Shown: piece by piece, positions 1,223 to 34,609 of the stretch
Layout of the letters: the number at the start of each line of letters is the position of its first letter
Numbering within the stretch: the first letter of the stretch is position 1
DNA from: a virus
Lineage: Duplodnaviria > Heunggongvirae > Uroviricota > Caudoviricetes
Reading direction: 5' to 3' (one strand)
Virus record (IMG/VR): IMGVR_UViG_2925919700_000005
Location: 1 to 38,422 of that record
DNA: 38,422 bases
Position numbers and translations under genes: made by a program
Notes under the pieces: generated by a model
What the model saw: only the letters and a program-made list of their open reading frames with translations
Database searches by the model: none
Told to the model about the DNA's origin: nothing

Positions 1223-1316
1223 AACGCGTTATAAATAATAGTGAGAAAGATGTTGAACGGGTCAACGTCTACGGGGGAGAACATCCCCCGCTTAACTTTT
1301 AAGAGGATATAAAACT

Positions 1317-3403: not shown

Positions 3404-3630
3404 TGAGCTATGAATTGTAAAGATTTGTTACAAGATTTTCTCTCAGATCCAAATCTTCACAGGCATATAACAATTTAACACGGTGATAACAATAGGAAGG
3501 AAAATCGGTAAATTTTCACTTTCAATACAAATATTATAACATATTTATCTCGAATTTTCAAGTATACCACCGATCCTACACAGTGTCAACAAAGGATTTT
3601 CAAACCTACACTAGCCCTACACTATGAAAA

Positions 3631-3870
3631 TTGCCCCTGAATTTTGCCCCTGAACCAAAATCCCCTAGATTTCACTATCCCATTTTTGCCCCTGAAACCT
3701 ACTATTTTTGCCCCTGAAATTCTGGGAAACAGTGATTTTGCCCCTCATTTTTGCCCCTGAAATGCCAATAATTGCCCCTGAAAATCTAATTTTTGCCCCT
3801 GAAATTTGCCCCAGAAAAGGATTGGTGAGAAAAACTCTTTATAAAACATTAACTTAGCGAGGGGCAAAAG
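3631..3870. repeat. Iteron-like array of ~9 direct copies of TTTTGCCCCTGAA with one inverted copy
   Basis: Copies at ~3631, 3642, 3683, 3705, 3736 (variant CTCA), 3748, 3772, 3790, 3805 (variant CCAGAA); inverted copy GAGGGGCAAAAG at 3859-3870; spacers are 10-30 bp and irregular. Confidence 0.8.
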
Positions 3871-4296: not shown

Positions 4297-4500
4297 TAAA
4301 TTGCTTCCGGATTATTATTTCTCCAAAAGAAAGATTCTTATATTCTAAAGATACTTCTTCGTTTTGATGATGATTTAATCAAAATCTATGAAGGAGGCGA
4401 AGCCGACTGAATACCAATTCCTTTCAAATTAGACAAAAATTTCTCGTTATAAATAATAGTGAACTTACTTTGATTCACTTTCTTTTAGAGGATTTCCACT

Positions 4501-7373: not shown

Positions 7374-7458
7374 ACAACCCCCTTTAATTAATACCCGTAT
7401 TTATCAAAATATCAACAATTTAATAAATACCTTCATATTTCGTAATGAGGGTAATTAC

Positions 7459-9363
7459 ATGAAACTGATTTCAAATAAGGCAAAATTAAAAAAGATTCTT
7501 AAAAATATCTCTGCGGCAATTCGCCCACCTAAAACGATGAAACCTAGCGAATGGGTAGAGGCTAATGTAGTTGCAACCGATGGTGTTAAAGCCGGATCGC
7601 TAATTAAATTGCATCCCTTCCAACGTGGAATGATGGACGCGATCACCGAAGACCGTAGAAAAATTGTGTTTAAATGTTCGGCACAGTTGGGTAAGACCAT
7701 GATTCTTAACGGAATTATCTTCCATCGGATCGCGAGTAACCCTACTAATATTGGGGTGTTGCAAAGTAACGTTAGAGAACTAAATTCTTGGATCGCTGGT
7801 AAGGTGAAGCCAGTATTAGAGGCAACGCCAGAATTAAAGGCGATGATCACCGACAAATCAGACCGTAATGCCGTTAACAACTCATCGATTATTCAGCTTC
7901 GTAACGGATCATTCATGTATTTCATGTCGCTGAACAGTCCATCACACTTGCGCGGTAAAACACTCCCTTTGATTATTCTTGATGAAGTTGATGCGGCTGA
8001 TGAGTCAGACGAAGGGAACCCGATCCAGCTAGCGGAACAACGCGCAACCACTTTCGGGGAAGATGCAAGGATCGTAATTGCTTCCACTCCAACCGCTCGT
8101 GATGGGGCGATTAACCAACAATGGGAACTCTCGGATAAGAGAAAATATCATGTCGTTTGCCAGCATTGCGGACACAAGCACGTAATGGAATGGAGTAACG
8201 TACATTTCGATTGGCATACGATTAACGGTAAATCATTACCCAACCCAGATACAGCCGTTTACCGTTGCCCTGAATGTGAAACCGACTGGACCGAAGGGGA
8301 TCGCCTACGTGCTGTTGCTCAGGGAGAATGGGTCGCCACCGAACCAAACGCGGAAGTAATCGGTTTTCATGCTAACCGCCTTATGTCTCCGTTTAGTTCT
8401 ATCCGTGCGTGTGTGGTGGACTTTGCTGATAGCTACGCGAATATGTCGCTGGCAACGTTCTATAATGTGGTGCTCGGTGAAACCTTCGATGATCTTAACG
8501 AAGACCGCACAGCCGACGAATTAGAAACGCTGAAAACTGATATTAGCCTAGACAATATTCCTGATGATGTACTGGCTCTGGTTGGTGGAGTTGACCAGCA
8601 AAAAGACCGTCTGGAATCTACCTTGCTGGGTATTTCTCGTAAAGGGCTATGCGTAGTTGATCACCGATCATTCTATGATGTGAACTGCGAACGCCACGAA
8701 TCACCAGCATATAACCAGCTTTACAACTTCCTGAAAGCGAAATTCTATACCCGATCCGGTCAACGAATCCCGATGTTATCTGCTTTCGTGGACTCATCGA
8801 ACGGACGAGCTACAAACGTGATCTATCGATTCTGCACACAATGGCAAAACCTAACAGCCATTAAAGGGGCAAGCAATGTTGATGCTCCAATCCTTCCGGT
8901 CAAGGACACAAGAACGGGTGGTTTTACTCTTAAAATTCTGGGCGTAAACAACCTTAAGACGATGATCCGTGAAATGATTAACCGGAACTTGAGAGACAGC
9001 GATCCTCATACGGTCTTCCAGATTGGTGACGTTCCTGATGACTATTGCGAGCAATTGTTATCTGAACAGTTGAAACGGCAGGGTAATACCACACGTTGGG
9101 TAAAAGTTGGTCAGCAACGAAACGAGGCTCTCGACTGCCTGGCTTACTCCTATGCTGCTTCTCGCCATGTACTCAATAAAATGTCATGGGAAAAACTCGA
9201 AGCCATCAAAGATAGTTTGAACCGTGAACCAGAAGAACCCGTAGAAGCTCCTAAATCGCAATCTAACGAGCAAATAGAAGAAACTAAGCCAATCACACGA
9301 CCGCAACGTCAAAACATCGCCAGACGTCCAAATAGAGGCCGTAGCTGGGTAACATCGTTCTAA
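7459..9363 (+). CDS. terminase large subunit (lambda gpA-like ATPase/nuclease)
   Basis: Walker A CSAQLGKT and Walker B LPLIILDEVD; Cys/His cluster CQHCGH...CPEC; 634 aa, immediately upstream of the portal gene. Confidence 0.9.
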   Translation: MKLISNKAKLKKILKNISAAIRPPKTMKPSEWVEANVVATDGVKAGSLIKLHPFQRGMMDAITEDRRKIVFKCSAQLGKTMILNGIIFHRIASNPTNIGVLQSNVRELNSWIAGKVKPVLEATPELKAMITDKSDRNAVNNSSIIQLRNGSFMYFMSLNSPSHLRGKTLPLIILDEVDAADESDEGNPIQLAEQRATTFGEDARIVIASTPTARDGAINQQWELSDKRKYHVVCQHCGHKHVMEWSNVHFDWHTINGKSLPNPDTAVYRCPECETDWTEGDRLRAVAQGEWVATEPNAEVIGFHANRLMSPFSSIRACVVDFADSYANMSLATFYNVVLGETFDDLNEDRTADELETLKTDISLDNIPDDVLALVGGVDQQKDRLESTLLGISRKGLCVVDHRSFYDVNCERHESPAYNQLYNFLKAKFYTRSGQRIPMLSAFVDSSNGRATNVIYRFCTQWQNLTAIKGASNVDAPILPVKDTRTGGFTLKILGVNNLKTMIREMINRNLRDSDPHTVFQIGDVPDDYCEQLLSEQLKRQGNTTRWVKVGQQRNEALDCLAYSYAASRHVLNKMSWEKLEAIKDSLNREPEEPVEAPKSQSNEQIEETKPITRPQRQNIARRPNRGRSWVTSF

Positions 9364-9435
9364 TAACTCGCCGTCCTTCGGGGCGGCTTACTCCTAAATA
9401 TTGTTAATCCAATAACAATTAAATAAGGGGTAATT

Positions 9436-9930
9436 ATGAGTTTAGAACTAATTCCCTTAGTAATTCGTAAAGGCGAAAAAATCACGCTGGCGAATGAAGA
9501 GGGTGTAACCATTCAGGTCGGAAATAGTAAAGCTATCGTTTATCAAGTCGATGATGCACCGGAAAATCACGAGATTAAAACATTAGATTTTGCCGAGGGT
9601 AAATATACCATCGTAATAACTTTTGATGAAGAACTGGTATCAATGCAGGAATTAACTGTTTTACCAGTCTTTGCCAAACAATCCAAAAAACAGTATCTGC
9701 GGGAAACTATCGCCTTAATCGAGCAAGTTATTTTCGCCCGTTTATCTGGGGACGAAGCCGCATTATCTGCAATGACCGTGAAAGGGAATACTTTCGCCTA
9801 TGAGTCATTGGGTGTTCTCCAGACTCTAAAAGTCGATTATGAACGTCAGTTATCTAAAGTAATTCAAGCCGAACGACGTAAACAGGGAATTAGCCCTATT
9901 AAAAATATCAAATTACGTCTTACGCGATAA
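9436..9930 (+). CDS. hypothetical head-assembly region protein (164 aa)
   Basis: AAGGGGTAATT-ATG initiation region; lies between the terminase and portal genes. Confidence 0.6.
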   Translation: MSLELIPLVIRKGEKITLANEEGVTIQVGNSKAIVYQVDDAPENHEIKTLDFAEGKYTIVITFDEELVSMQELTVLPVFAKQSKKQYLRETIALIEQVIFARLSGDEAALSAMTVKGNTFAYESLGVLQTLKVDYERQLSKVIQAERRKQGISPIKNIKLRLTR

Positions 9931-13647: not shown

Positions 13648-13676
13648 AGCCCTGCCTAACGGTGGGGCTTTTTTGT
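13648..13676 (+). terminator. Rho-independent terminator after the capsid gene
   Basis: AGCCCTGCC-TAAC-GGTGGGGCT stem followed by TTTTTTG. Confidence 0.7.
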
Positions 13677-13704
13677 ATGTAAATACTCCATAAAGGGGGT
13701 AACT

Positions 13705-13995
13705 ATGTTCAAATTATCAGAATCACAATTATCAAGAATGTTCCGAAGTGCTCCTGTATTTTCGGTGGAAGGTGGTAAATCAATTCGTGCTTATCATGAA
13801 ATTACTACTACCGACGAACAAGGGGTAATGACAGAAACAGAGTTTCTATTTTGTCGTGAGGGAGACTTAAAGCAAGGTGATATTGTCATTGTAGAAAATC
13901 AGCGTTTCAAAGTTCAATACGTTAAGCGCAATGGTGACAATACAACTGATTGCTTTATCACTCTGGCAGGGGGTACACATGCTCGCTACCGTTAA
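13705..13995 (+). CDS. putative head-tail connector/adaptor protein (96 aa)
   Basis: AAAGGGGGTAACT-ATG; position directly after the capsid gene; functional call is by position only. Confidence 0.5.
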   Translation: MFKLSESQLSRMFRSAPVFSVEGGKSIRAYHEITTTDEQGVMTETEFLFCREGDLKQGDIVIVENQRFKVQYVKRNGDNTTDCFITLAGGTHARYR

Positions 13996-15244: not shown

Positions 15245-15317
15245 TTGCTTCTCTAAATAAAACATGACGCGGGAGGTTAACGCCTCCCTTATTCCTGTTT
15301 TATAGTGAGGTGATTCG

Positions 15318-18300
15318 ATGCAGTCGATCCAATTTAAACGAACAAATGTTTCTGGCAAAAAACCAACGCCGGAACAATTACAGGTCGGTGAGGTGGCAAT
15401 CAACCTTAAAGACCATGTTATTTTTACCAAAGACCGAGATCATGAAGTAGTTCAAATCTCTGTTTCTCCTGAAACTCACGCGGCACTAGAATCTAAAGTT
15501 GATGCTAACAAACAAGAATTGGATAGCACAATTGCAGTAAATGACCGCAATATTCACGCTAAAGTAGATGAAATTAAACAAACTACTGATTCTACTATCG
15601 CAGCAAATCACGCAGAAATTAACAATAAAGTTGATGTAATTAAACGCGAAACCGACGCGACAATCGAGGCCAATAAAAATAAAGCTGCTTCCGATCTTGC
15701 TGGTGTTAAAGCTGAATTGTCGGATACTATCAACGCTAATAAAAATGCGGCTGCTGTAGCAACTCAGGAACTGGACACCCGCATCAATAAAAAAGTTGAT
15801 GATATTAAATCCCGTACTGATGCAACCATCGCAAGCAATCACAAAGCAATCAATGACAAGGTTGATTTGATTAAGGCAGAAACTGACCGCACTATCGCAG
15901 CAAATCAAGCCTATGCGGAAAATCAGTTAACTGACACCTACAATAACCTTACTGGTGTGATTGCAGCTAATAAGCAAGAGGCAGCGGATAGCGTCGCAGC
16001 ATTAACCCGTGATGTTGAAGCCAAAAATTCAGCAATTCATAGCAAAGTTGACAATAACAAGTCTTACACTGATTCTGAACTTGCACGTTTAGAAAGCCGT
16101 ATTGATGCAGCCGATGGATCTGCTGATGGCAAGTACATCAAAAAACACGTAAACACTTATACTGATGGTTATTTGCTGTCTAAGACCGCAAACTATTTTG
16201 ATGATCCAAATGCGCGTAATCTTAATTACTTTGGTGCATTCCGCATGAATGACCTGGCGGGTCATATTGCAATGATCTTGCATGTTCCGCATCCATCTGG
16301 TGTTAATCATGCTCGTGGCTTTGAGTTCACTTATGGGTCTAATCCGGTTCATACGGTAAGAACATACGGCTATGATGAATTGGGTCATTTGGCATATTCT
16401 CACCGCATGTATCATGAAGGTGATAAACCTACTCCTGCCGAAATTGGCGCATATTCGAAAGCAGAAATTGACCGACTGTTCCAGAAGACGCTTAATTTTG
16501 GGATCGAGGGTGGTTGGTTTAAACTAGGCACTTTGACAATGCCACAGCAACACGGTCGTAGTGCTAAGATCCGCTTAGTTGGTGGTAACGGTTATAACGT
16601 CGGGATGAATGGACAAGCCAATATTATCGAATTGGTGATTCGATGCGGCAACAATAGCCCGAAAGGTGTTGTATTCAATGCGTATTATACTATTTGGCAT
16701 TATGAACAACATTTTTGCGCTATTCCAACCGATGGCGACAATTACGATCTTTACGCTTACTACGGTGCACATACAGGATTTGTTTTAGCAGAATATCAAG
16801 TTTCTTCCGGTGGTGTTTCTTTAAACCTGTTGGATACTCCTGAATATCTGGGTGGTGAAAAACCTGTTGCAGATGAAATTTTTGATGCTCTTAACATTTC
16901 ATCGTTCACTAACTTTAGCAACCGTGGAACGTTAAATTTTGCGGGAAACCATCAAGGCCAATATGACATTGAGCATTTGAACGAACAACAAACTAACAGC
17001 AAAAAGATGTTGCGTCGCTTCCGTAGTTCTGCTCCTGCCACTATCTGGCATGAGACAGTTGATGATAACGCATATCGTCTTGCTACTGGATACGAAGATA
17101 CAAATCAGGAATTATTGCTGACAGCAACAACCGGGTTACATGTCAAGAGATTAACATTGGATGGTGGTGCTGCTGGTGGAAATGCTGGTATTGATATTCG
17201 TCGAGGACCAAACGAATCAAGCCATTTTAATTTTATGGATTATCGAACTGGTCAAGATGTTCGTAATGGCTGGTTTGGTTTTGGTGATTTGACGACCAAA
17301 GATTTTATTTGGTGGAACGATAACGGTCAAAACTCGATAAACTTGATCGAAAACGGTGAATTGCATATTACTGGCGGTAAAGGCCAGAAAATTGTAATGA
17401 ATAGCGAAGTTGCATTATCTGAAAATGCTCGTTTGGCTGTTAAAGGTGGCAATTATGGCTTAATTTTTAGAAATGATGGTACTGGTTTCCATATACTGAC
17501 TACCGATTTAAAAGATTCTTTTGGAAATTGGAATAATCGTAGACCATTCAGCTATAATTTTGATGATGGTGGACTATATTTAGGTGGCACTGAAACTGCT
17601 CGTTGTTTGCATCTGGGAATTGATGGTAGCACCCGTCTTGAGGAGAACTTAGTTTTCAGGGCGGGATCTCGTCAATCAATGGACTATATTGAAATGATCC
17701 ATTGGGGTAACAGTAATACCGCTCGTGACAACGTTTTGAGTATGAAAGACTCGAAAGGATTCCTTGCTGAATTTGAACGCGTGGGTGGGACTAACGGCGT
17801 TAAAACCAGATTCTTTGGTGAAACCTTCACTGACGGTACATTATACCTAAATCAGATGAATAATAGCTCTGAACGATTCTCTATCAACAATTGGGGAAAT
17901 TCAGAAGTTGGACGCGCGGCAGTAATGGAAATCGGTGATTCCAAAGGTTATCACTTCTATACTGAACGCAGGACAGATAACAGTTTGGCGTTTGATGTTG
18001 CTGGCGCTTTTACTGTGCATGGACCTAACGGAATAACCATCAAAAACTCAACTGGTGCACGCCATATCTGGTTTAGAGATGATAGCGATGCAGAAAAGGC
18101 TGTTATCTGGGCTACAGATGAGGGTATTTTACATATACGAAATAATCATGGGGGTTCATTTAGTCATCACTTCCAGGGTGCAATGATTAAAGCGGGAGAG
18201 CAAGTTCCTTATAATAGTGAATACGCTCTTATCCGTGGTGAGGTTTCTGGTGGTGCATGGGATGACTGGCGCAACCGTCCTGCTGGTATTCTCTTAGATT

Positions 18301-19784: not shown

Positions 19785-19838
19785 ATAAATAGAATTACGG
19801 GTATGTGCCCTATTGTTTAAAATAGAAGGAAAAGAATA

Positions 19839-20312
19839 ATGACTACTAAATTTGATATTTTCTCTGGTGGCCTCGTTGGTCTGTTTCTGCAAGAAGACGT
19901 AAGCAATAAAGACCTTGATGCTGAAACCTATCTGGAAATCCCAGAATGCGCAGCGTTCCCGGAAACTGGTGTAGAACGTTCTACGATCGATGTTCCTAAC
20001 TTCTCTGGTGCTTATAACCGTAAGCTGGTTGGTCGTATGTCTGTACCGGATATCGAACTTTCGATCAACTACATGCCGGGTAACGAAGTACACGAAAAAC
20101 TGATTAAAGCAACCGAAGACGGTAAGCGCGTACAGCTTAAAATTGCTTACTACATCGATGCTACGAAAAAATCTGGTGTACATATCGCTTATAACGGCTT
20201 CCTGTCTAAAACTACCATGACTGGTGGTGAGGATGCTGTAGTAGGCCGTACCTTCACCTTTGTAGTAGATGGTGCTCCGGTTAAACAAGCTGTTTTCCAG
20301 AAAGTCGTCTAA
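19839..20312 (+). CDS. major tail tube protein (lambda gpV N-domain-like)
   Basis: Lies directly before the chaperone and tape measure genes; IELSINYMPGN resembles lambda V TSFTLAWMPGE (from memory); AAGGAA SD; strong terminator follows. Confidence 0.6.
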   Translation: MTTKFDIFSGGLVGLFLQEDVSNKDLDAETYLEIPECAAFPETGVERSTIDVPNFSGAYNRKLVGRMSVPDIELSINYMPGNEVHEKLIKATEDGKRVQLKIAYYIDATKKSGVHIAYNGFLSKTTMTGGEDAVVGRTFTFVVDGAPVKQAVFQKVV

Positions 20313-20320
20313 TATTATCT

Positions 20321-20349
20321 AGCCATCCTTCGGGGTGGCTTTTTTGTTT
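20321..20349 (+). terminator. Rho-independent terminator after the tail tube gene
   Basis: AGCCATCC-TTCG-GGGTGGCT followed by TTTTTTGTTT. Confidence 0.75.
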
Positions 20350-20606
20350 CCAATTCTAAATAAACATATCGAATTAACTTAAGAGGAAACAAGAATGAAT
20401 ATTAATGAAATGTTAGCCGCACTCTCTCCGAAACGTGAATCTTTGACCATCGGTGGATTCACTTTCTATGCTCGCCCTATGTCAGTAAAAGAATTTAACG
20501 AACATGTTTTCAATACTGATAAAGAAGACCGTGATGAACGTTCTATTCTTCGTTGTATTGAAGATGAAGACGGTAAGCCAGTATTTGAATCTATGGAACA
20601 AGTTAA

Positions 20607-20615
20607 GGCACTGTA
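20607..20615. repeat. IS10 target-site duplication, left copy (GGCACTGTA)
   Basis: Identical 9-mer immediately flanks both ends of the element. Confidence 0.95.
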
Positions 20616-21944
20616 CTGAGAGATCCCCTCATAATTTCCCCAAAACGTAACCATGTGTGAATAGATTTTGAGTAAGCAGGGTTGCAGCCACGAGTGAGTC
20701 TTCCCTTGTTATTGTGTAGCCAGAATGCCGCAAAACTTCCATGCCTAAGCGAACTGTTGAGAGTACGTTTCGATTTCTGACTGTGTTAGCCTGGAAGTGC
20801 TTGTCCCAACCTTGTTTCTGAGCATGAACGCCCGCAAGCCAACATGTTAGTTGAAGCATCAGGGCGATTAGCAGCATGATATCAAAACGCTCTGAGCTGC
20901 TCGTTCGGCTATGGCGTAGGCCTAGTCCGTAGGCAGGACTTTTCAAGTCTCGGAAGGTTTCTTCAATCTGCATTCGCTTCGAATAGATATTAACAAGTTG
21001 TTTGGGTGTTCGAATTTCAACAGGTAAGTTAGTTGCTAGAATCCATGGCTCCTTTGCCGACGCTGAGTAGATTTTAGGTGACGGGTGGTGACAATGAGTC
21101 CGTGTCGAGCGCTGATTTTTTCGGCCTTTAGAGCGAGATTTATACAATAGAATTTGGCATGAGATTGGATTGCTTTTAGTCAGCCTCTTATAGCCTAAAG
21201 TCTTTGAGTGACTAGATGACATATCATGTAAGTTGCTGATAGGTTTCCAGTTTTCCGCTCCTAGGTCTGCATATTGTACTTTTCCTCTTACTCGACTTAA
21301 CCAGTACCAACCCAGCTTCTCAACGGATTTATACCATGGCACTTTAAAGCCAGCATCACTGACAATGAGCGGTGTGGTGTTACTCGGTAGAATGCTCGCA
21401 AGGTCGGCTAGAAATTGGTCATGAGCTTTCTTTGAACATTGCTCTGAAAGCGGGAACGCTTTCTCATAAAGAGTAACAGAACGACCGTGTAGTGCGACTG
21501 AAGCTCGCAATACCATAAGCCGTTTTTGCTCACGGATATCAGACCAGTCAACAAGTACAATGGGCATCGTATTGCCCGAACAGATAAAGCTAGCATGCCA
21601 ACGGTATACAGCGAGTCGCTCTTTGTGGAGGTGACGATTACCTAACAATCGGTCGATTCGTTTGATGTTATGTTTTGTTCTCGCTTTGGTTGGCAGGTTA
21701 CGGCCAAGTTCGGTAAGAGTGAGAGTTTTACAGTCAAGTAAGGCGTGGCAAGCCAACGTTAAGCTGTTGAGTCGTTTTAAGTGTAATTCGGGGCAGAATT
21801 GGTAAAGAGAGTCGTGTAAAATATCGAGTTCGCACATTTTGTTGTCTGATTATTGATTTTTGGCGAAACCATTTGATCATATGACAAGATGTGTATCTAC
21901 CTTAACTTAATGATTTTGATAAAAATCATTAGGGGATTCATCAG
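20616..21944 (-). mobile_element. IS10 insertion sequence, complete (1329 bp)
   Basis: Ends CTGAGAGATCCCCTCATAATTTCCCC (inside end, 20616) and ...AAAATCATTAGGGGATTCATCAG (outside end, 21944); length 1329 bp; encodes the 402-aa IS10 transposase. Confidence 0.97.
20629..21837 (-). CDS. IS10 transposase
   Basis: 402-aa translation MCELDILHDSLYQFCPELHLKRL...HGYVLGKL matches the IS10/Tn10 transposase as I recall it; start is 107 bp inside the outside end. Confidence 0.97.
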   Translation of the reverse strand: MCELDILHDSLYQFCPELHLKRLNSLTLACHALLDCKTLTLTELGRNLPTKARTKHNIKRIDRLLGNRHLHKERLAVYRWHASFICSGNTMPIVLVDWSDIREQKRLMVLRASVALHGRSVTLYEKAFPLSEQCSKKAHDQFLADLASILPSNTTPLIVSDAGFKVPWYKSVEKLGWYWLSRVRGKVQYADLGAENWKPISNLHDMSSSHSKTLGYKRLTKSNPISCQILLYKSRSKGRKNQRSTRTHCHHPSPKIYSASAKEPWILATNLPVEIRTPKQLVNIYSKRMQIEETFRDLKSPAYGLGLRHSRTSSSERFDIMLLIALMLQLTCWLAGVHAQKQGWDKHFQANTVRNRNVLSTVRLGMEVLRHSGYTITREDSLVAATLLTQNLFTHGYVLGKL

Positions 21945-21953
21945 GGCACTGTA
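21945..21953. repeat. IS10 target-site duplication, right copy (GGCACTGTA)
   Basis: Perfect copy of 20607-20615. Confidence 0.95.
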
Positions 21954-22423: not shown

Positions 22424-24853
22424 ATGACAAGACATATAGTAACAATAGAAGGGGATAATAAAGGTCTAAGGAGAAGTACCAATGAAGCCGCCGACCTTCT
22501 CGATAGTTTGTCTGAAAAGGCAAGTAATATTGATTTTGGTGGTGGCTTATCTGGTCTGACTGGGTCTCTTCGTGGGATCGCTGGCTCTGCTGGTTTGGCT
22601 GCTGGTGGTATCGGCTTAGTTGCGACCGCAGTGGTTGCAGCCGCTAAAGCTGGCGCGGAATACGTTAAACAGTATTCAGAAGTATCTAAGGCGACCGGAC
22701 TCTCGATTGAATCCCTTCAAAGACTGGAAAAGGAATTTTCTGGCACTGGCTTAACAGTTGAAAAATTTGGCGATATCAACAAAGACACCTTAGATAAGAT
22801 GGGTGATGCGTGGGCTAACGGTGGTGGTATTGCTGATGACTTAGAATCGGTTGGCCTTAAGTTAGAAAACTATGCTCACTTCATGACAGATCCGCAAGGT
22901 GGTATGAAAGCGGCGATCCAAGTGTTCTATGACATGAAGAAAGCCGGAAAATCAATGGCTGAAATCAAGTTCATGATGGAATCTTTAGCCAGTGATTCAA
23001 GCCATATGACCAGCCAGCTTGAGAAATATAATAGTGCTCAAGAGGCGATGATCGCTATTCAGAATCAATCTGTTAACGTCACCGAAGAAAACGCTAAAAA
23101 ATATGATAAATTTTCTCAGAATATTAATAAGCTGGAAAATAACCTGAAAGGTGTCGGCATGACCATTACTGGTCCTTTGGTTGATAGCTTAAACTGGTTA
23201 TTTGACTGGTTTAATATTGATTGGGAAAAGAGTTCTCTATTCAGGGCATTAGACCGACTGAATAAAGAAGGCAAGACCGCAACTGGCGGTATTCTTAACG
23301 CCAACCATAAAGACGCTCAAAAAATTATTGACAAGTACAATAAAGAAAAGCGTTGGAATAATCTGGCAGATTGGGAAAAGGCCGCGATCCGTGGTGCTGG
23401 TGTCGATCCTCGTACTGCTGGCTTTGATGTAGAAGCATATAAGAAACGTTTTGGTAATTCTTATAAGAAAAATGGCTCTCTGATTGTAGTCGATAACGGG
23501 GAACATCTAACCCGCAAGGCAGATCCTAACCGTGATTTGACTATCCCAACTACACCAACTCGACCAGCTTCATTGGGTAAGTCTGGCAACGAGAAGAAAG
23601 CCGAGGAAGAAGCCAAAAAGAAAGCGGAAGAGGCAGCTAAAAAGGCTAAGGAAGCCGCAGAAAAAGCACAGAAAGAACGTGAGGATGCAATCAAGCGTCT
23701 GAATGCACTTGATGTTAAATTGCAAGGGCAAGTCGCCGCGTCTATTGCTTCTCAAAACAAGCAATTAGAATCCAGTTTGAAAGATTTGGACACTGCTTTA
23801 GATCTGGGCTTAATCTCTCAGCAAGACGCAGCCGCGAAACGCCAATCCTTAATCGATCAGAATACTGAAAACGTATACAAAATGGTTTTAGGTGCTGATC
23901 CGGTTGATGCTTTGAATGCCTTAACACAATTGCAACAAATAAGGGACAACGAGCTAGAAAGCCATAAACGGTTACTTGATGGTAAAGCTATCTCCTACGA
24001 AGAATATATGCGTCGTGTGAACGATACCGAGCAAAACTATTCTCAGATTGAAAATTCTTTACAGGGAATGGATGGTTTTAAAACCAATCAGTTGACCAAT
24101 AGCTTAGACTATCAGGATTCAAATAACCCGTTTGCTAAATTTAATGCAATCGATAAAGAGAAATCGGAAGCGGAACAAGATTATAAAACCGATAAACTCA
24201 AGATTGACGGTATTAATGATCCGGCTAAACGGATGGAAGCATTAGAAAAACTCAATGAAAACCATCAAAAACGAATGGCTGCAATTGAGAAGAAATATGC
24301 TGATGCTCGACAGTCAATAGCCGATGATATGTATGGCGGTTTTGCTGCTGCAATGACTCTCTTCGGGCAGGAAAACACTAAAGCTATGCAGATGGCTTTC
24401 ACTGCTCATAAAGCATTCTCCATTGGACAAGCGACGGTGAACATGTGGACGGCTGCTACCGATGCATGGAACGATCCAACCAACGTAACCACAGGTCAAA
24501 AAATCGCTGCTGCTGCATTGGCTGTTTCTCAGAACATGGGGAGCATCGCAAACATCAAGTCTACTAACGTTAGCGGTATGGCTCATGATGGTATTGATAA
24601 CATCCCTCGTGAGGGTACATGGCTGCTTGATAAGGGTGAACGAGTAGTTGATCAGCGTACTAACGGTGATTTGAAAGACTTCTTATCTGCTCAAAAATCA
24701 GGCGGTGGTAACTCTCAGCCGATTGAAGTTAACGCACCTTTGAACATTAACGGCAACGTTAATAGCTCAGACAAGATGGTCATGGATGCTATCAAACGTC
24801 ATGCTAAGTTAGTTGCTCAGGCGGTAGAAGACGCACAGCGCCGTAAGATGTAA
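22424..24853 (+). CDS. tape measure protein
   Basis: 809 aa, directly downstream of the tube and chaperone genes; N-terminal Gly/Ala-rich hydrophobic segments and long K/E-rich helical regions; AAAGGGGTAATTT-ATG. Confidence 0.8.
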   Translation: MTRHIVTIEGDNKGLRRSTNEAADLLDSLSEKASNIDFGGGLSGLTGSLRGIAGSAGLAAGGIGLVATAVVAAAKAGAEYVKQYSEVSKATGLSIESLQRLEKEFSGTGLTVEKFGDINKDTLDKMGDAWANGGGIADDLESVGLKLENYAHFMTDPQGGMKAAIQVFYDMKKAGKSMAEIKFMMESLASDSSHMTSQLEKYNSAQEAMIAIQNQSVNVTEENAKKYDKFSQNINKLENNLKGVGMTITGPLVDSLNWLFDWFNIDWEKSSLFRALDRLNKEGKTATGGILNANHKDAQKIIDKYNKEKRWNNLADWEKAAIRGAGVDPRTAGFDVEAYKKRFGNSYKKNGSLIVVDNGEHLTRKADPNRDLTIPTTPTRPASLGKSGNEKKAEEEAKKKAEEAAKKAKEAAEKAQKEREDAIKRLNALDVKLQGQVAASIASQNKQLESSLKDLDTALDLGLISQQDAAAKRQSLIDQNTENVYKMVLGADPVDALNALTQLQQIRDNELESHKRLLDGKAISYEEYMRRVNDTEQNYSQIENSLQGMDGFKTNQLTNSLDYQDSNNPFAKFNAIDKEKSEAEQDYKTDKLKIDGINDPAKRMEALEKLNENHQKRMAAIEKKYADARQSIADDMYGGFAAAMTLFGQENTKAMQMAFTAHKAFSIGQATVNMWTAATDAWNDPTNVTTGQKIAAAALAVSQNMGSIANIKSTNVSGMAHDGIDNIPREGTWLLDKGERVVDQRTNGDLKDFLSAQKSGGGNSQPIEVNAPLNINGNVNSSDKMVMDAIKRHAKLVAQAVEDAQRRKM

Positions 24854-24856
24854 TTA

Positions 24857-24903
24857 AAAGCCCTCATAGTGATAAATAATCATAAAACTATGGGGGCTTT
24901 TTC
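24857..24903 (+). promoter_or_regulatory. Hairpin AAGCCCTCATAG...CTATGGGGGCTT that sequesters the GGGGG Shine-Dalgarno of the next gene; also terminator-like (T-run)
   Basis: 12-bp stem with one G-U pair and a 19-nt loop, followed by TTTTT; the right arm GGGGG lies 9 nt upstream of ATG 24905. Confidence 0.5.
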
Positions 24904-24904
24904 T

Positions 24905-25465
24905 ATGTTCAAATCCAAAAATATTAAAATCACAGATTTTACTCTTAAATCAAAACAACCTTTCTTCAAGGCGCAATCTATTTCTGGTAAGTTCCAGCGT
25001 CGCTTTACTGGTATTCATTTTTATGAAGCAGAATTTACAGCTAATTTCATGGCTCAGGATATTAACGAAGTAAAAGAATTTGTAGCACGTCACCTTTTTG
25101 GTCGTCCTTTTAGTGTGCCACTGTCTTACTTTTCAAAATATACAGGTGATGTACGCCAGATGGTTACGGCTGCTGCTGGTACTGCTCGCGGTGGGCGTAA
25201 GGTGAGAATCTCCAACTTCACCGGAACACTGAAAGCGGGAACTATCATCCAGTTTGAGAACCACAAGAAAATCTACACGATCACCGAAGATGTGAAATCA
25301 GGTGGTGAAATGAAACTCTTCCCTAACTTGCGTCAGAACGTCCTGGCGGGTGAGGTGATCAAGTATCAAAACGTAGAAGGCGAATTTGTTCTCAAAACTG
25401 AAAATATCGATTGGAAGATCGCCCAGATTGGCAAGATGAAATTCGAATTAGTGGAGAATGTATAA
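24905..25465 (+). CDS. minor tail protein (lambda gpM-like position)
   Basis: First gene after the tape measure; start chosen at ATG 24905 downstream of the hairpin; functional call by position only. Confidence 0.5.
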   Translation: MFKSKNIKITDFTLKSKQPFFKAQSISGKFQRRFTGIHFYEAEFTANFMAQDINEVKEFVARHLFGRPFSVPLSYFSKYTGDVRQMVTAAAGTARGGRKVRISNFTGTLKAGTIIQFENHKKIYTITEDVKSGGEMKLFPNLRQNVLAGEVIKYQNVEGEFVLKTENIDWKIAQIGKMKFELVENV

Positions 25466-26118: not shown

Positions 26119-26164
26119 TCCCTTCTCCCTAAGCCTAGTAAATAACAGCATGGAGGTATTCAAC

Positions 26165-26584
26165 ATGCTAAAAACTAGGCTTATCACCGATTACATCAAT
26201 TCTTTAATAGGTCAGGAGTTCGTTCAAGGCGAGAATGATTGCAATCTAATTGCATGTAAGATCATCGATATTCTCGCTGGTACTGACCTATATAATTCTC
26301 TTTATAAAAAATATTCAACTAAAGAAGAAGGCTTGAAAATCTGCAAAGAATTAAGCGGGTATTCAAATATCCTTCAACCAATTAAGAAACATTTCAAATT
26401 AGTCACTGATGATTTACAGGACGGCGACTTACTGGTCACAGCCCACAAATTAGGGAACCGCAAATATTATTCCGTAGTTCCTCATTATTCCGGTTATGGC
26501 CTCGTTGAAGAAGATGGTATCTGGATGACCATTCCTGTTTCAGACATTGAATATGAACAAGTTTATAGATTCGGGGGTGAATAA
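26165..26584 (+). CDS. tail assembly protein with NlpC/P60-like Cys-His motif (lambda gpK-like C-terminal domain)
   Basis: GGAGG SD; QGENDCNLIACKI (candidate catalytic Cys) and a downstream His (TAHKLG); stop overlaps the J start. Confidence 0.5.
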   Translation: MLKTRLITDYINSLIGQEFVQGENDCNLIACKIIDILAGTDLYNSLYKKYSTKEEGLKICKELSGYSNILQPIKKHFKLVTDDLQDGDLLVTAHKLGNRKYYSVVPHYSGYGLVEEDGIWMTIPVSDIEYEQVYRFGGE

Positions 26585-30360: not shown

Positions 30361-30378
30361 AATTTAATTCTAATAATT

Positions 30379-30418
30379 AATCCCGCTTAATTCTTTTGGG
30401 TTAGGCGGGATTATTTTT
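30379..30418 (+). terminator. Rho-independent terminator after the J-like gene
   Basis: AATCCCGC ... GCGGGATT followed by TTATTTTT. Confidence 0.7.
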
Positions 30419-30462
30419 ATCTAAATAATTCTGCCATTAAATTATAAAATATCGGGGGCGTA

Positions 30463-30741
30463 ATGACTGAAATTATATATGGCGGTATCGGTGTTATCGC
30501 CTTAATTTGTGGTGGTCTTTGGAGACTTCACCGAAATCAATTAGCAACAGAAAATAGATTGTCGAAATTAGAGTCCAATGATGCATTGTTTAATCAGAAG
30601 TTTGAAACAATGCAAAGTAACCACGACCAGATCGCCGAGAGAGTTTATCGCATGGAACAAACACTACACGGTATAGAGAAGAAAGTGGTTGCGATGGACG
30701 CCAAATTTGACCAAGTTCTCGACATACTCAAACAAAAATAA
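30463..30741 (+). CDS. membrane protein with one N-terminal TM helix and a coiled coil (holin- or spanin-like)
   Basis: TM segment IIYGGIGVIALICGGLW followed by a coiled-coil region; ATCTAAATAATTCTG box upstream; lies four genes upstream of the endolysin. Confidence 0.5.
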   Translation: MTEIIYGGIGVIALICGGLWRLHRNQLATENRLSKLESNDALFNQKFETMQSNHDQIAERVYRMEQTLHGIEKKVVAMDAKFDQVLDILKQK

Positions 30742-30931: not shown

Positions 30932-31615
30932 ATGGCAACCAGTACCAATAAACGAAACGCTCTAAGGACTAAGAAAGCGTTACGCCAATGGACTGATAAA
31001 GCAACCGATACATTCGAAAGGGCGATAGGGGAAGGGGCGATCTTTGCTTCCAGAGCACTCCAGAAGAAGATTAACAAGAATGTTGATAGACCTACTCGCT
31101 GGACTCAGCAAGCTGTAGGTAATACCAACTACAAGAACCGATCAGGGACGAGACACCAAATCTTCATCAAGGGCGCAAGGGATAAGGACAAGAAGATCGG
31201 CAGTCAAGACGACTATCTGAAACACTATTTCGATGGTGGCAAAATCAATAAGCTAGTGCCAATAGCTAACGGTAAGGTCTTAGACTCCCACGGGAACATT
31301 AAGGCCATTAAAGGCGGTAAGATGATGCGTAACATCGAAAATGGCAACTTCATCAAGGTAGAGAACAAGGAAGGGACTTTTATCATGAAGAAGTACAAGC
31401 CTAAGAAATCCCGAACCAAACGCGCTAGGAATGGATCGGCGGTGGCAAAACGTCGCTTAGAGAAACGCATACAGAAACAGAGCAAGCGAATTGTTGCCGT
31501 TAAGTCAGATAAAATTTCTACTCGTTATTCGACGCTAGGATCGTGGGAAAGCAACGAGGAAATGATGCTTAAGAACATTAATAAGCACATTAAATCGCGC
31601 ATGAGATACGTTTAA
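30932..31615 (+). CDS. highly basic hypothetical protein (227 aa)
   Basis: AGGGGG SD; Lys/Arg-rich throughout; no recognisable family. Confidence 0.6.
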   Translation: MATSTNKRNALRTKKALRQWTDKATDTFERAIGEGAIFASRALQKKINKNVDRPTRWTQQAVGNTNYKNRSGTRHQIFIKGARDKDKKIGSQDDYLKHYFDGGKINKLVPIANGKVLDSHGNIKAIKGGKMMRNIENGNFIKVENKEGTFIMKKYKPKKSRTKRARNGSAVAKRRLEKRIQKQSKRIVAVKSDKISTRYSTLGSWESNEEMMLKNINKHIKSRMRYV

Positions 31616-31653
31616 TCCATAAATACCCTCATAGAATCTTATGGGGGTATAAC
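31616..31653 (+). promoter_or_regulatory. Second copy of the CCCTCATA...TATGGGGG hairpin, sequestering the SD of the 31654 gene
   Basis: ACCCTCATA-GAATCT-TATGGGGGT; the right arm is the SD 7 nt upstream of ATG 31654. Confidence 0.45.
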
Positions 31654-32001
31654 ATGGCTAAAAATATTTTTACTGAATTTCCTACTTATCCGGTCGATCA
31701 GCTTTCCGGTATTTTTATTAATGGCATTAGCCCAGAATCCATGACACATGATTTTGAGGCGAAGAGAGTTAAACATAAACAATATAAAGAATGTATCCGC
31801 GATCATGAAAAAGGGACCGTGTTTTGTGTCGCTACATTGGCTAAACGTCCTAAGTATCGTTTTCGTGTAGGACAAGAAGTTGATGTGGTTAATCCTTATA
31901 GCTTTAACTGTCTGGGCGATGCACGCGCGGTGTGTGTAGGCACTGCTCCTTATTATATCAAGGGTATGCGCTTTATTGGTTATATCTTCGAAATGATCTA
32001 A
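31654..32001 (+). CDS. hypothetical protein (115 aa)
   Basis: ORF with GGGGG SD; Cys-containing; no recognisable family. Confidence 0.55.
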   Translation: MAKNIFTEFPTYPVDQLSGIFINGISPESMTHDFEAKRVKHKQYKECIRDHEKGTVFCVATLAKRPKYRFRVGQEVDVVNPYSFNCLGDARAVCVGTAPYYIKGMRFIGYIFEMI

Positions 32002-32010
32002 GGGGGTAAT

Positions 32011-32364
32011 ATGTTAAGTAAGCATTTTTCTCGCAAGGAATTTAAATGTAAATGCGGAAAATGTGATTATGATACAATCGACGCTGAATTACTGGTGATT
32101 CTTGAGGATGTACGCGAACACTTCGGGAAACCAGTAATTATTAACAGTGGGAACCGTTGTCCGACTCATAACAAGAATGTAGGCGGTGCAACCAACAGCT
32201 ATCACGTTCGAGGTCGTGCGGCTGACATTGTGGTCAAGGGTGTCTCCCCTGATATTGTCCATGCTTATCTTGATGGGAAATATCCTACTCAATACGGCTT
32301 AGGCAAATATAAAACCTTTACGCATATTGATTCCAGATCAAAAAAATCACGGTGGAATGGATAA
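32011..32364 (+). CDS. endolysin, peptidase M15 family (zinc D-Ala-D-Ala carboxypeptidase / L-Ala-D-Glu peptidase type)
   Basis: SYHVRGRAADIVV (S-x-H-x-x-G-x-A-x-D) and a downstream THID motif form the Zn-binding H-D-H pattern; N-terminal FSRKEFKCKCGKC is typical of this family; AGGGGGTAAT-ATG. Confidence 0.8.
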   Translation: MLSKHFSRKEFKCKCGKCDYDTIDAELLVILEDVREHFGKPVIINSGNRCPTHNKNVGGATNSYHVRGRAADIVVKGVSPDIVHAYLDGKYPTQYGLGKYKTFTHIDSRSKKSRWNG

Positions 32365-32396
32365 AACAAAAGCGCCTCTAGTGGGCGCTTTTTTGT
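32364..32396. terminator. Bidirectional rho-independent terminator between convergent genes
   Basis: AAGCGCC-TCTAGT-GGGCGCTT flanked by an A-run upstream and a T-run downstream. Confidence 0.7.
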
Positions 32397-33886
32397 TATA
32401 TGGCAATTGTTTTAGTTGCATAGCTGAACTTGTCGGTTAGATAATAGCGGATTCTCTCAAGTGCATGTTTTACCGCATAATTTTTATGCTTGACTTTTCC
32501 GTTACGACCGAATATACACAGATGATCGATAAGATCCCAGACCGTTGCAATGTCTTTCGAACCATGTTTACGCAATGCACGACCGATACTCTGACGAACG
32601 ATAGTTGATTCCTTCACGGGATGACCGAAAATAACATGGTGCAAATTCTTAATTGAAACACCAGTAGAGAAAACACCATAGGATGCAACGCAAATGATCC
32701 CTGTTTCCCCTTCCGCTAATTTCTTAAATTCATCACGTTCTTCTGTCTTAACTCCACCGTCAATATAATAAACCTTGTCGTGTACCTTCTGTAACGCGTC
32801 ATACATAAGTTTTCCGTGCTTAGTATTGCGGAACATCAGGAATACGTTTTCTCCCTTCTTAGCGAGTTTTAGCGCCAAATTACAAGCAAACTTATTTCGT
32901 CGTGGATTAGACGTAATATACTTGATCTCTTCCGCATATTCTCTACCCTTAACCGCGCTACATTCCTCATCGGTATAACGAAGGAAAAGACAGTTAATTT
33001 TCAGTTTTGTCACCTGCCCTTCTTCCATCAGGCGGTCAATACTCACGATCTTAGAAATATCACCGAAAAGCCCGACATACTGCATTAAATGGCACTTTGA
33101 TTCTTTCGGGGAACCAGTCATGCCGATCTTAAATTGGCAATGATTCATTCCGTTAATGATATTGGTAATATTTTTGGCACTAGCCTTATGCGATTCATCA
33201 ACTATCAACATTCCATATTGTTTGAACCATTCAGGAGGCATCTTGCACGCTGATTGCCAGGTACTAACCGTGATTAACCTGTCTCCCGGATGTTTCCCGC
33301 TACCACTCATCATTGTATGAATTGCTTCATAAGGGAATAGCCTATAATCGATGAAATCATCCCTCATTTGAACCACTAGCGATGTAGTAGGGACAATGAT
33401 TAACACTTTTCCGGTGTAATGCTCTAAGTACCAACGAGACAGCATACAAGCAATCAATGACTTACCCGCACTGGTAGGAAGAACCAGCATTCTACGGCGA
33501 TTATGAATACCCTGAAAGACTGCCTCCCTTTGATACCAGTAAGGATTGATTTTATTGGAACCGGAATACACTTCTAGGGAATCAATCCATTCATTAATCG
33601 CGTCTTTGGTTACATCTTCCTTCTCAAGCAATCGCGGGTCAATCCAGACTGAATAGCCCATATTTTTAACGAAGACACCCAACGTTTTTAATAGTCCAAT
33701 TGGTAGGGTATTTTCATGCGTAAACAGTCTTATTCGTCCATCCCAGCCGGAATACTTGTAGCGGGGGCTAAACCTAGCCCCTTCAACCTCAAACGAGAAA
33801 TAATCCCTTAATTCCATTCCGATAGAAGGAGAGCAATCAACCTTAACGAAACTGTAATCTTGAAAATGAATTTTAATATCTTGCAT
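32396..33886 (-). CDS. UvsW-like SF2 DNA helicase
   Basis: Walker A LPTSAGKS, IIVPTT, DExH box IVDESH and VWDLIDH; overall resemblance to T4 UvsW as recalled; start set to ATG 33886, overlapping the upstream stop. Confidence 0.8.
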   Translation of the reverse strand: MQDIKIHFQDYSFVKVDCSPSIGMELRDYFSFEVEGARFSPRYKYSGWDGRIRLFTHENTLPIGLLKTLGVFVKNMGYSVWIDPRLLEKEDVTKDAINEWIDSLEVYSGSNKINPYWYQREAVFQGIHNRRRMLVLPTSAGKSLIACMLSRWYLEHYTGKVLIIVPTTSLVVQMRDDFIDYRLFPYEAIHTMMSGSGKHPGDRLITVSTWQSACKMPPEWFKQYGMLIVDESHKASAKNITNIINGMNHCQFKIGMTGSPKESKCHLMQYVGLFGDISKIVSIDRLMEEGQVTKLKINCLFLRYTDEECSAVKGREYAEEIKYITSNPRRNKFACNLALKLAKKGENVFLMFRNTKHGKLMYDALQKVHDKVYYIDGGVKTEERDEFKKLAEGETGIICVASYGVFSTGVSIKNLHHVIFGHPVKESTIVRQSIGRALRKHGSKDIATVWDLIDHLCIFGRNGKVKHKNYAVKHALERIRYYLTDKFSYATKTIAI

Positions 33887-34455
33887 TAGTTCCACTCCAC
33901 ACTTGCAATATTCTTTATATTGTTTAGTGATTTATTGCAGTAGTGGAATGTTTCAGTTTTGCCGTATTCAATCCCGCCTATACCCACATCCAGTAATCTC
34001 TTTATTGCTCTTTCAGTGGCTAAAGCATGTTTCATTGATGGCATTTCACCAGCAAAGACAATATCAAAGTTATGACCGGGATTGCGTACACCCAGATTAA
34101 TGCGTCGCTTGATGATTGACTTTGTTACACCAAATTTACCAATATCCCCTGATTTCATTACATAGAGATAAGGCACACCCGCTTTATATTGAAAGTAATC
34201 ACTTTTGAGACATGCACAGCGTTTACCTTCATTAAGCAGGTTGGTAGCTGATTTGTCGGCTCTATTGCCGCATCGGGTACATGTAAGAGCAATTCTTGAA
34301 TGAAGCCCTTTAAACTCACCCAGAAAGCCATGAAAGACTAACGGTAAGTCCTTCTCTTTGATGTGAGTCAGAATGCGTTGTTCTAATGCCGATGGAGTTA
34401 CAGCACGGGAGGATTTAGGAGTAAAAACAATATCTTTAGCCATTACTGGAATCAT
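33886..34455 (-). CDS. GIY-YIG-like (T5orf172-type) protein with N-terminal zinc ribbon; possible homing endonuclease or DNA-binding nuclease
   Basis: CTRCGN...CAC Cys cluster followed by YLYVMKSGDIGKFGVTKSIIKRR (GIY-YIG-like Y-x-Y...K-F-G-x-T...R pattern). Confidence 0.5.
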   Translation of the reverse strand: MIPVMAKDIVFTPKSSRAVTPSALEQRILTHIKEKDLPLVFHGFLGEFKGLHSRIALTCTRCGNRADKSATNLLNEGKRCACLKSDYFQYKAGVPYLYVMKSGDIGKFGVTKSIIKRRINLGVRNPGHNFDIVFAGEMPSMKHALATERAIKRLLDVGIGGIEYGKTETFHYCNKSLNNIKNIASVEWN

Positions 34456-34609
34456 ATAGACCTCACTTTTTTAACTTATAGGCATAACCTCAATATGGTT
34501 GGTTTGGGATTTAGGGTCGCGTATTATACACATTCAGATAGAGAATGCAATAGTAAGACAATTTTCTCTAATAAATAGTAGTGAGCTTATTATTTTAGAG
34601 GAAACTACT

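Follow-up and report, generated by a model that had tools for sequence, protein, structure and literature searches.

The stretch of DNA analysed here, a 38,422-nucleotide (nt) record of a tailed virus in IMG/VR (IMGVR_UViG_2925919700_000005; Caudoviricetes; hereafter the window), is an Escherichia coli prophage of about 35 kb with 41% G+C. Its structural genes form a plus-strand block at 7459-32364 that includes terL and the genes for the portal, capsid, tail tube, tail assembly chaperones and tape measure, and ends in a 3′ part encoding the distal tail protein, the hub, a J-like tip protein, three small open reading frames (ORFs), ORFs of 227 and 115 amino acids (aa) and an M15 endolysin. At two places in this block, before the distal tail gene (site 1) and before the 115-aa gene (site 2), the RNA is predicted to fold into a strong hairpin whose 3′ arm is the ribosome-binding site (RBS) of the next gene, and the hexamer TAAATA lies within or directly beside the hairpin. 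How can genes with a buried RBS be expressed, and what is the hexamer doing next to the stem? The features concerned are the following.

22424-24853, plus strand: tape measure gene, 809 aa
24851-24853, plus strand: stop codon TAA of the tape measure gene
24856-24870, plus strand: 5′ arm of site 1, AAAAGCCCTCATAGT; anti-Shine-Dalgarno (anti-SD) core CCCTC at 24861-24865
24871-24886, plus strand: loop of site 1, 16 nt, GATAAATAATCATAAA; TAAATA at 24873-24878
24887-24901, plus strand: 3′ arm of site 1, ACTATGGGGGCTTTT; Shine-Dalgarno (SD) sequence GGGGG at 24892-24896
24898-24902, plus strand: T-run of site 1, a terminator-like tail; five T here, four in many relatives
24905-25465, plus strand: distal tail protein gene, 186 aa (phrog_1302, E 2.6e-16), RBS buried by site 1
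31620-31625, plus strand: TAAATA adjoining site 2; its last three bases belong to the stem
31623-31634, plus strand: 5′ arm of site 2, ATACCCTCATAG; anti-SD core CCCTC at 31626-31630
31639-31650, plus strand: 3′ arm of site 2, TTATGGGGGTAT; SD GGGGG at 31643-31647
31654-32001, plus strand: 115-aa gene with no assigned function, RBS buried by site 2
32011-32364, plus strand: M15 endolysin gene, next after the 115-aa gene

The hairpins that the original prediction had placed in front of the genes at 24905 and 31654 were both found, and both fold strongly. Site 1 has 15 pairs, one of them U·G, and begins 3 nt past the tape measure stop codon; its RNA folds with −23.3 kcal/mol (z-score −6.5), and the ATG follows at 24905. 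Site 2 has 12 pairs, two of them G·U, around a 4-nt loop (AATC), and begins 8 nt after the upstream stop codon at 31613-31615; it folds with −18.7 kcal/mol (z-score −4.9), and the ATG follows at 31654. None of 200 shuffled sequences was as stable in either case, and the pattern CCCTCATA-N3-30-TATGGGGG occurs twice in the window and in none of 100 dinucleotide shuffles. When weak outer pairs across an internal loop are counted, site 1 reaches about 21 interrupted base pairs (bp), and site 2 forms extra flanking pairs in the fold; the continuous helices are 15 and 12 bp long.

The RBSs of this prophage are highly uniform, reading GGGG(G)T(A/G)A at 4-8 nt before the ATG, and this consensus is found at 9436, 9941, 13705, 14411, 22424, 26584, 30463, 30760, 30932 and 32011. 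The G-runs at 24892-24896 and 31643-31647 match the pattern, so that the 3′ arms are indeed GGGGG RBSs as had been claimed; the claimed distance of 7-9 nt from the ATG did not hold for both, site 1 having a spacing of 8 nt and site 2 one of 6 nt. The cost of opening the SD was computed for 38 gene starts, namely the two sites and 36 others, and amounts to 18.9 kcal/mol (site 1) and 16.5 kcal/mol (site 2) against at most 9.0 kcal/mol, with a median of about 3.6, elsewhere. The probability of an unpaired SD is close to zero at both sites, where the SD lies in a stable local helix as expected of a sequestering hairpin. In view of this difference in opening cost, the burial of the SD is real and exceptional for this genome.

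The original prediction had further read the same stem sequence at both sites as a shared structured element, and this part was not borne out. Because the 3′ arm must hold the consensus RBS, the 5′ arm must be C/U-rich, and beyond the RBS complement the two sites share just CATAG/CT(T)ATG. The 3′ arm is merely the RBS consensus of at least ten other genes, and relatives mostly carry CCCCCATAG rather than CCCTCATAG. Translational control, which the shared element had been taken to suggest, fares better than the shared stem itself, in view of the exceptional SD occlusion and the kept pairing. A third exact CCCTCATA, at 20626, was considered as a related copy and as a sign of a mobile or repeated element; it is the terminal inverted repeat of an IS10 and hence coincidental, and the window holds no further copies. 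A search of the window with Rfam 15 gave the RNA-OUT of IS10 as its sole match, with nothing at either site even at E-values up to 10. Judged from the sequences, what the sites have in common is the adjacent TAAATA and where the anti-SD arm stands with respect to it, a feature absent from the original prediction. In addition, the five non-Watson-Crick pairs found across four stems are all G·U in the sense RNA and would be A·C in the antisense RNA, which argues for a structure of the sense RNA over a DNA palindrome.

Comparison with relatives covered 14 distinct site 1 sequences in 51 loci, plus a variant in locus L082. Site 1 reads GCCCCCATAG in most of the 51 loci, with CCCCC where the window has CCCTC, a minority variant. 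The differences among relatives consist of the lengths of homopolymer runs, one change from C-G to U·G and one compensatory change from C-G to U-A (L082), and in one locus (L073) a G-to-A change unpairs a G-C pair at the foot of the core stem. On this comparison the pairing at site 1 is maintained; covariation within this close family is weak, its one compensatory pair being equalled in 46 of 500 shuffles. Site 2 is near-invariant in relatives, with one variant that disrupts a pair, and in two loci (L061 and L062) a mosaic breakpoint lies just upstream of it, at the end of the upstream gene and outside the stem. The variable T-run of site 1 (four or five T) would frameshift any upstream start, so the stretch is non-coding and the start codon at 24905 is confirmed. 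An upstream AUG at 24890 is in frame in the five-T variants only. In one relative (L002; IMG/VR contig 2690316210_000001), the sequence directly 5′ of the site 1 hairpin, ending ...TTGGCAGCATCACC, stands in place of the end of the tape measure gene and looks like a terminal repeat of IS1.

Site 1 has, moreover, the makings of an intrinsic terminator. A 10-bp GC core with an A-U extension is followed by five T (four in relatives), which gives the required stem and U-tract; its 16-nt loop is longer than the roughly 3-8 nt of short-loop terminators, and for this reason the site is missing from a terminator consensus scan. Site 2 has a short loop and no U-run. The T-run is present at site 1 only, in keeping with the original prediction that the first copy may act as a terminator or attenuator. 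The same tape-measure/distal-tail junction holds a canonical terminator in a distant relative (L092) and a UUCG hairpin in phage DCP80. Like the intrinsic terminators of phage late operons, site 1 combines a G+C-rich stem with A-tract and U-tract flanks just past a stop codon; unlike them, it has a long loop, only 4-5 U and a 3′ arm that doubles as the next RBS, and the hairpins of site 2 and of terL (see below) lack a U-tract altogether. Site 1 is plausibly a terminator or attenuator, though its loop is unusual for one.

No hexamer is commoner in the late intergenic DNA (970 nt) than TAAATA, which lies inside the loop of site 1 and overlaps the foot of site 2: 11 copies in 10 gaps compare with 0.95 expected. 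None of 2000 shuffles attained 11 copies, and across 1000 shuffles even the most widespread hexamer occurred in 6 gaps at most. All these copies lie on the sense strand; the reverse complement occurs once. Coding sequence contains 7 copies in 22.7 kb. The leaders and copies other than those of sites 1 and 2 are listed here.

7424-7461, plus strand: terL leader; TAAATA at 7424-7429, stem of 7428-7436 (TACCTTCAT) with 7445-7453 (ATGAGGGTA), SD GAGGG at 7447-7451, ATG at 7459
9395-9400, plus strand: TAAATA; anti-SD TTACTCC directly upstream pairs with the SD of the gene at 9436; second copy at 9420
13680-13707, plus strand: small version of the design, right after a canonical terminator; TAAATA at 13680-13685, stem of TACTCC (13684-13689) with GGGGTA (13696-13701), ATG at 13705
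15254-15259, plus strand: TAAATA upstream of the gene at 15318
19786-19791, plus strand: TAAATA upstream of the tail tube gene at 19839
20357-20362, plus strand: TAAATA about 10 nt past the terminator at 20321-20346, upstream of the gene at 20395
26139-26144, plus strand: TAAATA upstream of the gene at 26165
30422-30427, plus strand: TAAATA about 4 nt past the terminator at 30378-30418, upstream of the gene at 30463

Late gaps of at least 38 nt contain a hairpin just past the stop codon in every case except 26119-26161, the one in 19785-19838 (before the tail tube gene) being weak. Three of them hold canonical terminators (near 13651, 20321 and 30378) with 3′ ends that read GGGGC-TTTTT, like site 1, and in these three TAAATA stands 4-11 nt past the U-run. 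Furthermore, each of the 12 loci compared has TAAATA at 29-40 nt before the ATG of its distal tail gene, even where protein identity has fallen to 36% and whether or not a hairpin is present. In seven of the 12 the upstream neighbour is divergently transcribed across a gap of about 48-51 nt, and a promoter must therefore lie there.

The leader of terL provides a third hairpin of the same design, with a sequence that has diverged from those of sites 1 and 2. It reads TAAATA-CCTTCAT-loop-ATGAGGG and folds with −10.5 kcal/mol (z-score −3.2), again with no U-tract. Relatives retain the occlusion in altered form: the terL leader of L121 (TerL 67% identical) has TAAATA and an SD-occluding stem of CCTCTATC and GATGGAGG; that of L146 (51% identical) reads TTTCTCAC...AGTGAGGA with TAAATA in the loop; two Salmonella loci (L173 and L174) have the stem arms of the window with another loop; and in a Proteus locus (L172) the anti-SD has been relocated upstream of TAAATA. 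These diverged leaders give stronger evidence of conservation than the covariation in the close site 1 family. Across 16 diverged loci, all 28 TAAATA-linked leaders with an SD cost of at least 6 kcal/mol have the partner of the SD either upstream of the motif or at +0 to +4 from its end, and partners further downstream occur in weakly paired leaders only.

Some further observations concern these leaders. Between the gene of a 200-aa protein and terL (7374-7458), two opposed TAAATA stand 20 nt apart (minus strand 7403-7398, plus strand 7424-7429), and both are invariant in the E. coli relatives and conserved in the Salmonella and Proteus relatives. Mosaicism is strong, as L003 against L129 and further IMG/VR contigs show: prophages whose distal tail protein is 99-100% identical have a TerL only about 59% identical to that of the window, together with an identical terL leader (TAAATA and hairpin). 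The 3′ arms of site 2 and of terL each contain an upstream AUG (at 31641-31652 and 7446-7462) that opens a tiny ORF (MGV* and MRVIT*), ending 1 nt before the main start codon or overlapping it.

The reading that we favour, with a probability of roughly 0.4, is that TAAATA is a promoter element resembling that of T4 late genes and gates the hairpins, in that RNAs started at it would be translatable and RNAs reading through from upstream would be locked. TAAATA would be the −10-like core of a promoter with no −35 element, of the T4 late TATAAATA type. At sites 1 and 2, at terL and at 13705, the anti-SD 5′ arm is next to this core and the 3′ arm supplies the SD of the next late gene. If transcription starts about 6-8 nt past TAAATA, the first base of the RNA would fall in the site 1 loop (near 24884-24886) and, by the same rule, within the 5′ arm at site 2 (near 31631-33) and at terL. 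Such RNAs would be without the anti-SD arm and open to ribosomes; as folded from the predicted starts they lack structure, with energies (−2.6, −1.0 and −2.5 kcal/mol) that do not stand out from those of shuffles. Transcripts entering from upstream would carry both arms, fold and keep the downstream RBS locked, and at site 1, with its U-run, they may in part be terminated, which would also end the tape measure unit. The existence of read-through transcripts with both strands is indirectly supported by what appears to be selection for G·U-tolerant pairing in the sense strand.

This arrangement has a well-described counterpart. In the T4 genes e (lysozyme), soc, 49 and I-TevI, long transcripts fold into a helix that sequesters the RBS, and a TATAAATA late promoter in the DNA for the 5′ strand gives rise to short, translatable transcripts (PMC3014915). 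As in T4, the SD and/or AUG of the prophage genes is held in a stable helix, an A/T-rich motif with no −35 element lies in or next to the DNA of the 5′ strand, and RNAs starting just past the motif are predicted to lose that strand and become translatable; one gated unit here ends with an endolysin gene. Unlike T4, the host of the design is a temperate siphovirus-type E. coli prophage and not a T4-like lytic phage; TAAATA corresponds to the last 6 of the 8 T4 bases, and searches of the window found no gp55 or gp33 homologue; and the design serves structural genes (terL, distal tail), with one copy in the loop of a terminator-like hairpin. By analogy, we infer that RBS-burying hairpins beside TAAATA most resemble the T4 way of keeping genes untranslatable on read-through RNAs.

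A number of observations weigh against promoter gating. The full 8-bp T4 consensus TATAAATA is absent from both sites, site 1 having GATAAATA and site 2 CATAAATA, with 7 of the 8 bases matched in each; there is no conserved TA at positions −2 and −1, the base before TAAATA being A in 49% and C in 37% of cases, and only the last 6 of the 8 T4 bases are matched. TAAATA is no sigma-70 −10 element either. Copies in front of genes that do not belong to the structural operon occur on both strands, and TAAATA may therefore not be late-specific. Pfam and PHROGs on about 30 ORFs of the window and a PDB sequence search yielded no factor resembling sigma or gp55/gp33, remote homologues being possible; and the 200-aa protein next to terL, modelled with AlphaFold (predicted local distance difference test, pLDDT, 76), gave no such factor with Foldseek against the PDB (best E = 1.0). 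Sites 1 and 2 follow genes that are themselves late, and the gain from locking read-through is not obvious. In DCP80, the only relative among isolated phages, the tape-measure/distal-tail junction has its hairpin without TAAATA. A few loci have TAAATA just 20-21 nt from the ATG, which would leave a very short leader, and the 28 leaders with the constant anti-SD position are not all independent, since some of the loci are homologous. An ordinary sigma-70 promoter within the hairpins was also considered and set aside, with no convincing −35/−10 pair there and 28 sigma-70-like sites against 45.9 expected in 19-38 kb.

Other explanations of the hairpins have to be weighed against promoter gating, and two of them, a plain terminator or stabiliser role and an activator like Com of phage Mu, are serious rivals. 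It is conceivable, if on balance unlikely, that these are ordinary intercistronic hairpins, a terminator or attenuator at site 1 and a 3′-end stabiliser at site 2, in gaps so short that the G-rich RBS of the next gene happens to serve as the 3′ arm; the downstream proteins would then be low-copy ones, weakly translated through breathing of the hairpin or SD-independent initiation at the A/U-rich starts, and TAAATA would have another role. The hairpins after nearly all stop codons in the longer late gaps, the resemblance of site 1 to the three canonical terminators, the terminator of L092 and the UUCG hairpin of DCP80 at the same junction, and start regions that are A/U-rich and unstructured all suit such a view. 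It sits badly with the opening cost of 16-19 kcal/mol, which should nearly abolish initiation, yet tail assembly needs the distal tail protein; a U-run is missing at site 2, and a loop as long as that of site 1 is unusual in a terminator. It also leaves unexplained why the anti-SD always lies at or upstream of +4 from TAAATA, and why SD occlusion is kept with altered stems at terL, where there is no upstream same-strand gene in need of a terminator. Quite unlikely, in our estimate, is the second of these rivals, in which UAAAUA in the RNA is the site of a phage translational activator that melts the hairpin, frees the RBS and times late translation in the manner of Com at mom. In the Mu mom stem, too, the SD is locked and a short conserved stretch adjoins the inhibitory helix, at a spot to which an activator could bind, and in the prophages the anti-SD falls within 0-3 nt of TAAATA, on either side, in many leaders; an anti-SD-like tetramer occurs at most 10 nt upstream in 23 of 79 leaders and further downstream in 6 of 79, TAAATA is strictly on the sense strand, and the hairpins appear to be selected as sense RNA. 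Unlike the Mu case, no Com-like or other candidate RNA-binding protein was found among the window ORFs with Pfam and PHROGs, and TAAATA also follows strong terminators and stands between divergent genes, where a promoter fits better: in the seven divergent distal-tail loci with gaps of about 50 nt, an RNA containing the anti-SD would have to start inside the neighbouring gene.

The remaining explanations are weaker still. Structures that occlude an SD mediate translational coupling in RNA phages and ribosomal-protein operons, where, as here, the downstream RBS is paired with sequence near the preceding stop codon. Ribosomes finishing the upstream gene would unwind the hairpin, expose the RBS and make downstream translation proportional to upstream translation, and the stop codons do lie close by, 3 nt before the hairpin at site 1 and 8 nt before it at site 2. 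As Takyar et al. are said to have reported in 2005, unwinding of mRNA by the ribosome extends as far as about +11 to +13, counted from the first base of the P site. With the stop codon in the A site this reach would be 24858-24860, covering only the A-U foot of site 1, and 31620-31622, short of the stem of site 2; as it ends before the anti-SD cores at 24861-65 and 31626-30, simple coupling, as at the coat-replicase junction of RNA phages, is disfavoured, and the occurrence of the design at terL and at divergent distal-tail loci, with no upstream same-strand gene, makes it improbable. Cleavage by RNase III or RNase E could instead separate or activate the downstream cistron. An A/U-rich single-stranded segment beside a stem is a typical RNase E context, and the outer pairs of site 1 (about 21 interrupted bp) and the extra pairs of site 2 lengthen the helices; as continuous helices they are short for RNase III, which needs about two helical turns (at least 20 bp), a cut in the UAAAUA of site 2 would leave the stem intact and its SD still buried, and Rfam returned no match at either site, all of which puts processing at a decidedly low probability. 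Lowest of all we place palindromes acting at the DNA level, as the operator of a dimeric regulator or as a recombination or mosaic joint, and chance resemblance. Distant relatives do have near-perfect palindromes of up to 18 bp between divergent genes (L037/L088), and the mosaic breakpoint of L061 and L062 falls only a little before site 2. The mismatches, being G·U in the sense strand only, speak for RNA, the palindromes at divergent loci are mostly explained by two back-to-back modules of TAAATA and SD, and the breakpoint falls at the end of the upstream gene and not in the stem; chance is excluded by the absence of the pattern from shuffles and by the outlying opening costs.

If promoter gating by TAAATA is the right reading, it may extend well beyond this prophage. 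A broader proposal, which we regard as tentative and rather doubtful in its full extent, is that temperate siphovirus-type prophages of E. coli, Salmonella and Proteus, as a widespread group, transcribe most of their genes from TAAATA promoters of the T4 late type, lacking a −35 element, through an unrecognised factor, and that an anti-SD systematically placed at or just upstream of the motif locks read-through RNAs, including those that leak in the lysogen, at terL, at tail-tip genes and at the unit ending in the endolysin gene, with the promoter of site 1 nested in the loop of a terminator. Under the gating model, the T4 device of a promoter inside an inhibitory hairpin would not be peculiar to T4-like lytic phages: a family of enterobacterial prophages that is common, at about 1% of complete E. 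coli genomes, yet uncharacterised would use it generally for insulation. There would be reason to expect an undescribed transcription factor specific for TAAATA; it would be understandable why terminase, tail-tip and lysis-associated proteins are not made by leakage while the prophage is silent; and about 50 nt of DNA would offer a compact natural part that combines terminator, promoter and conditional RBS. Should the gating model fail, the sites would still show clearly, and in testable form, how a terminator or stabiliser hairpin can overlap an RBS.

As for the prophage itself, near-identical copies are present in 55 of 5426 complete E. coli genomes (about 1%), and in one of these 55 the prophage sits in ycdX, beside a large serine recombinase; a scan of the genome contigs gave one locus only. 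Literature searches gave nothing useful on a TAAATA phage promoter or on a prophage in ycdX, and a collection of isolated phages contained no close relative at the DNA level. The more distant DCP80 (PQ671644.1; L109-L111) is a 141-kb record labelled Tevenvirinae that contains a 26-kb siphovirus-type module homologous to the prophage (TerL 44% identical), in which GTTATAAATA follows the terminators. The record also has T4-like genes, among them three copies of rIIA and duplicated blocks, and it is probably a chimeric or scrambled assembly. It was considered as evidence that the module runs on the T4 late machinery, and because it looks chimeric it is kept as a lead only.

The tail module of the window is interrupted by a complete insertion sequence.

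20616-21944: complete IS10, flanked by target duplications at 20607-20615 and 21945-21953
21830-21899: RNA-OUT match within IS10

The element encodes a 402-aa transposase on the minus strand, and its target duplication is 9 bp (GGCACTGTA). It splits a tail assembly chaperone gene whose repaired ORF has 102 aa, the same as in relatives, and this copy of the prophage is probably defective for tail assembly. The 402-aa minus-strand ORF in the tail module had prompted the idea of IS200/IS605-type transposon ends, which was ruled out, the ORF being the transposase of IS10 with its RNA-OUT.

Other sequences of interest lie outside the two sites. A 17-mer, GTTATAAATAATAGTGAG, has four copies outside the structural block, at 1228-1245 (plus), 4446-4463 (plus), 34568-34585 (plus, a variant) and 3182-3165 (minus). 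It includes the full T4-like TATAAATA and may represent a separate class of promoter or operator; its two halves recur in the site 1 loop (ATAGTGATAAATAAT), there with their order exchanged. In L037 and L088 (also L034, L083 and L090), homologues of the distal tail and hub proteins (45-51% identical) form a two-gene cassette beside a large serine recombinase. In L037/L088 the cassette diverges from a T4-type lysozyme gene, and the near-perfect palindrome between them, up to 18 bp, holds both SDs and both TAAATA; a 298-aa ORF nearby in L088 looks by eye like a TIR-like nucleotide-binding protein. In the window, at least six repeats of the TTTTGCCCCTGAA type are arrayed at 3629-3817 with spacings of 13-43 nt and resemble the iterons of a replication origin. 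Finally, a 499-aa helicase at 32396-33895 on the minus strand has the N-terminal domain of T4 UvsW (Pfam E 2e-34), a T4-like gene of replication or recombination in a temperate prophage.

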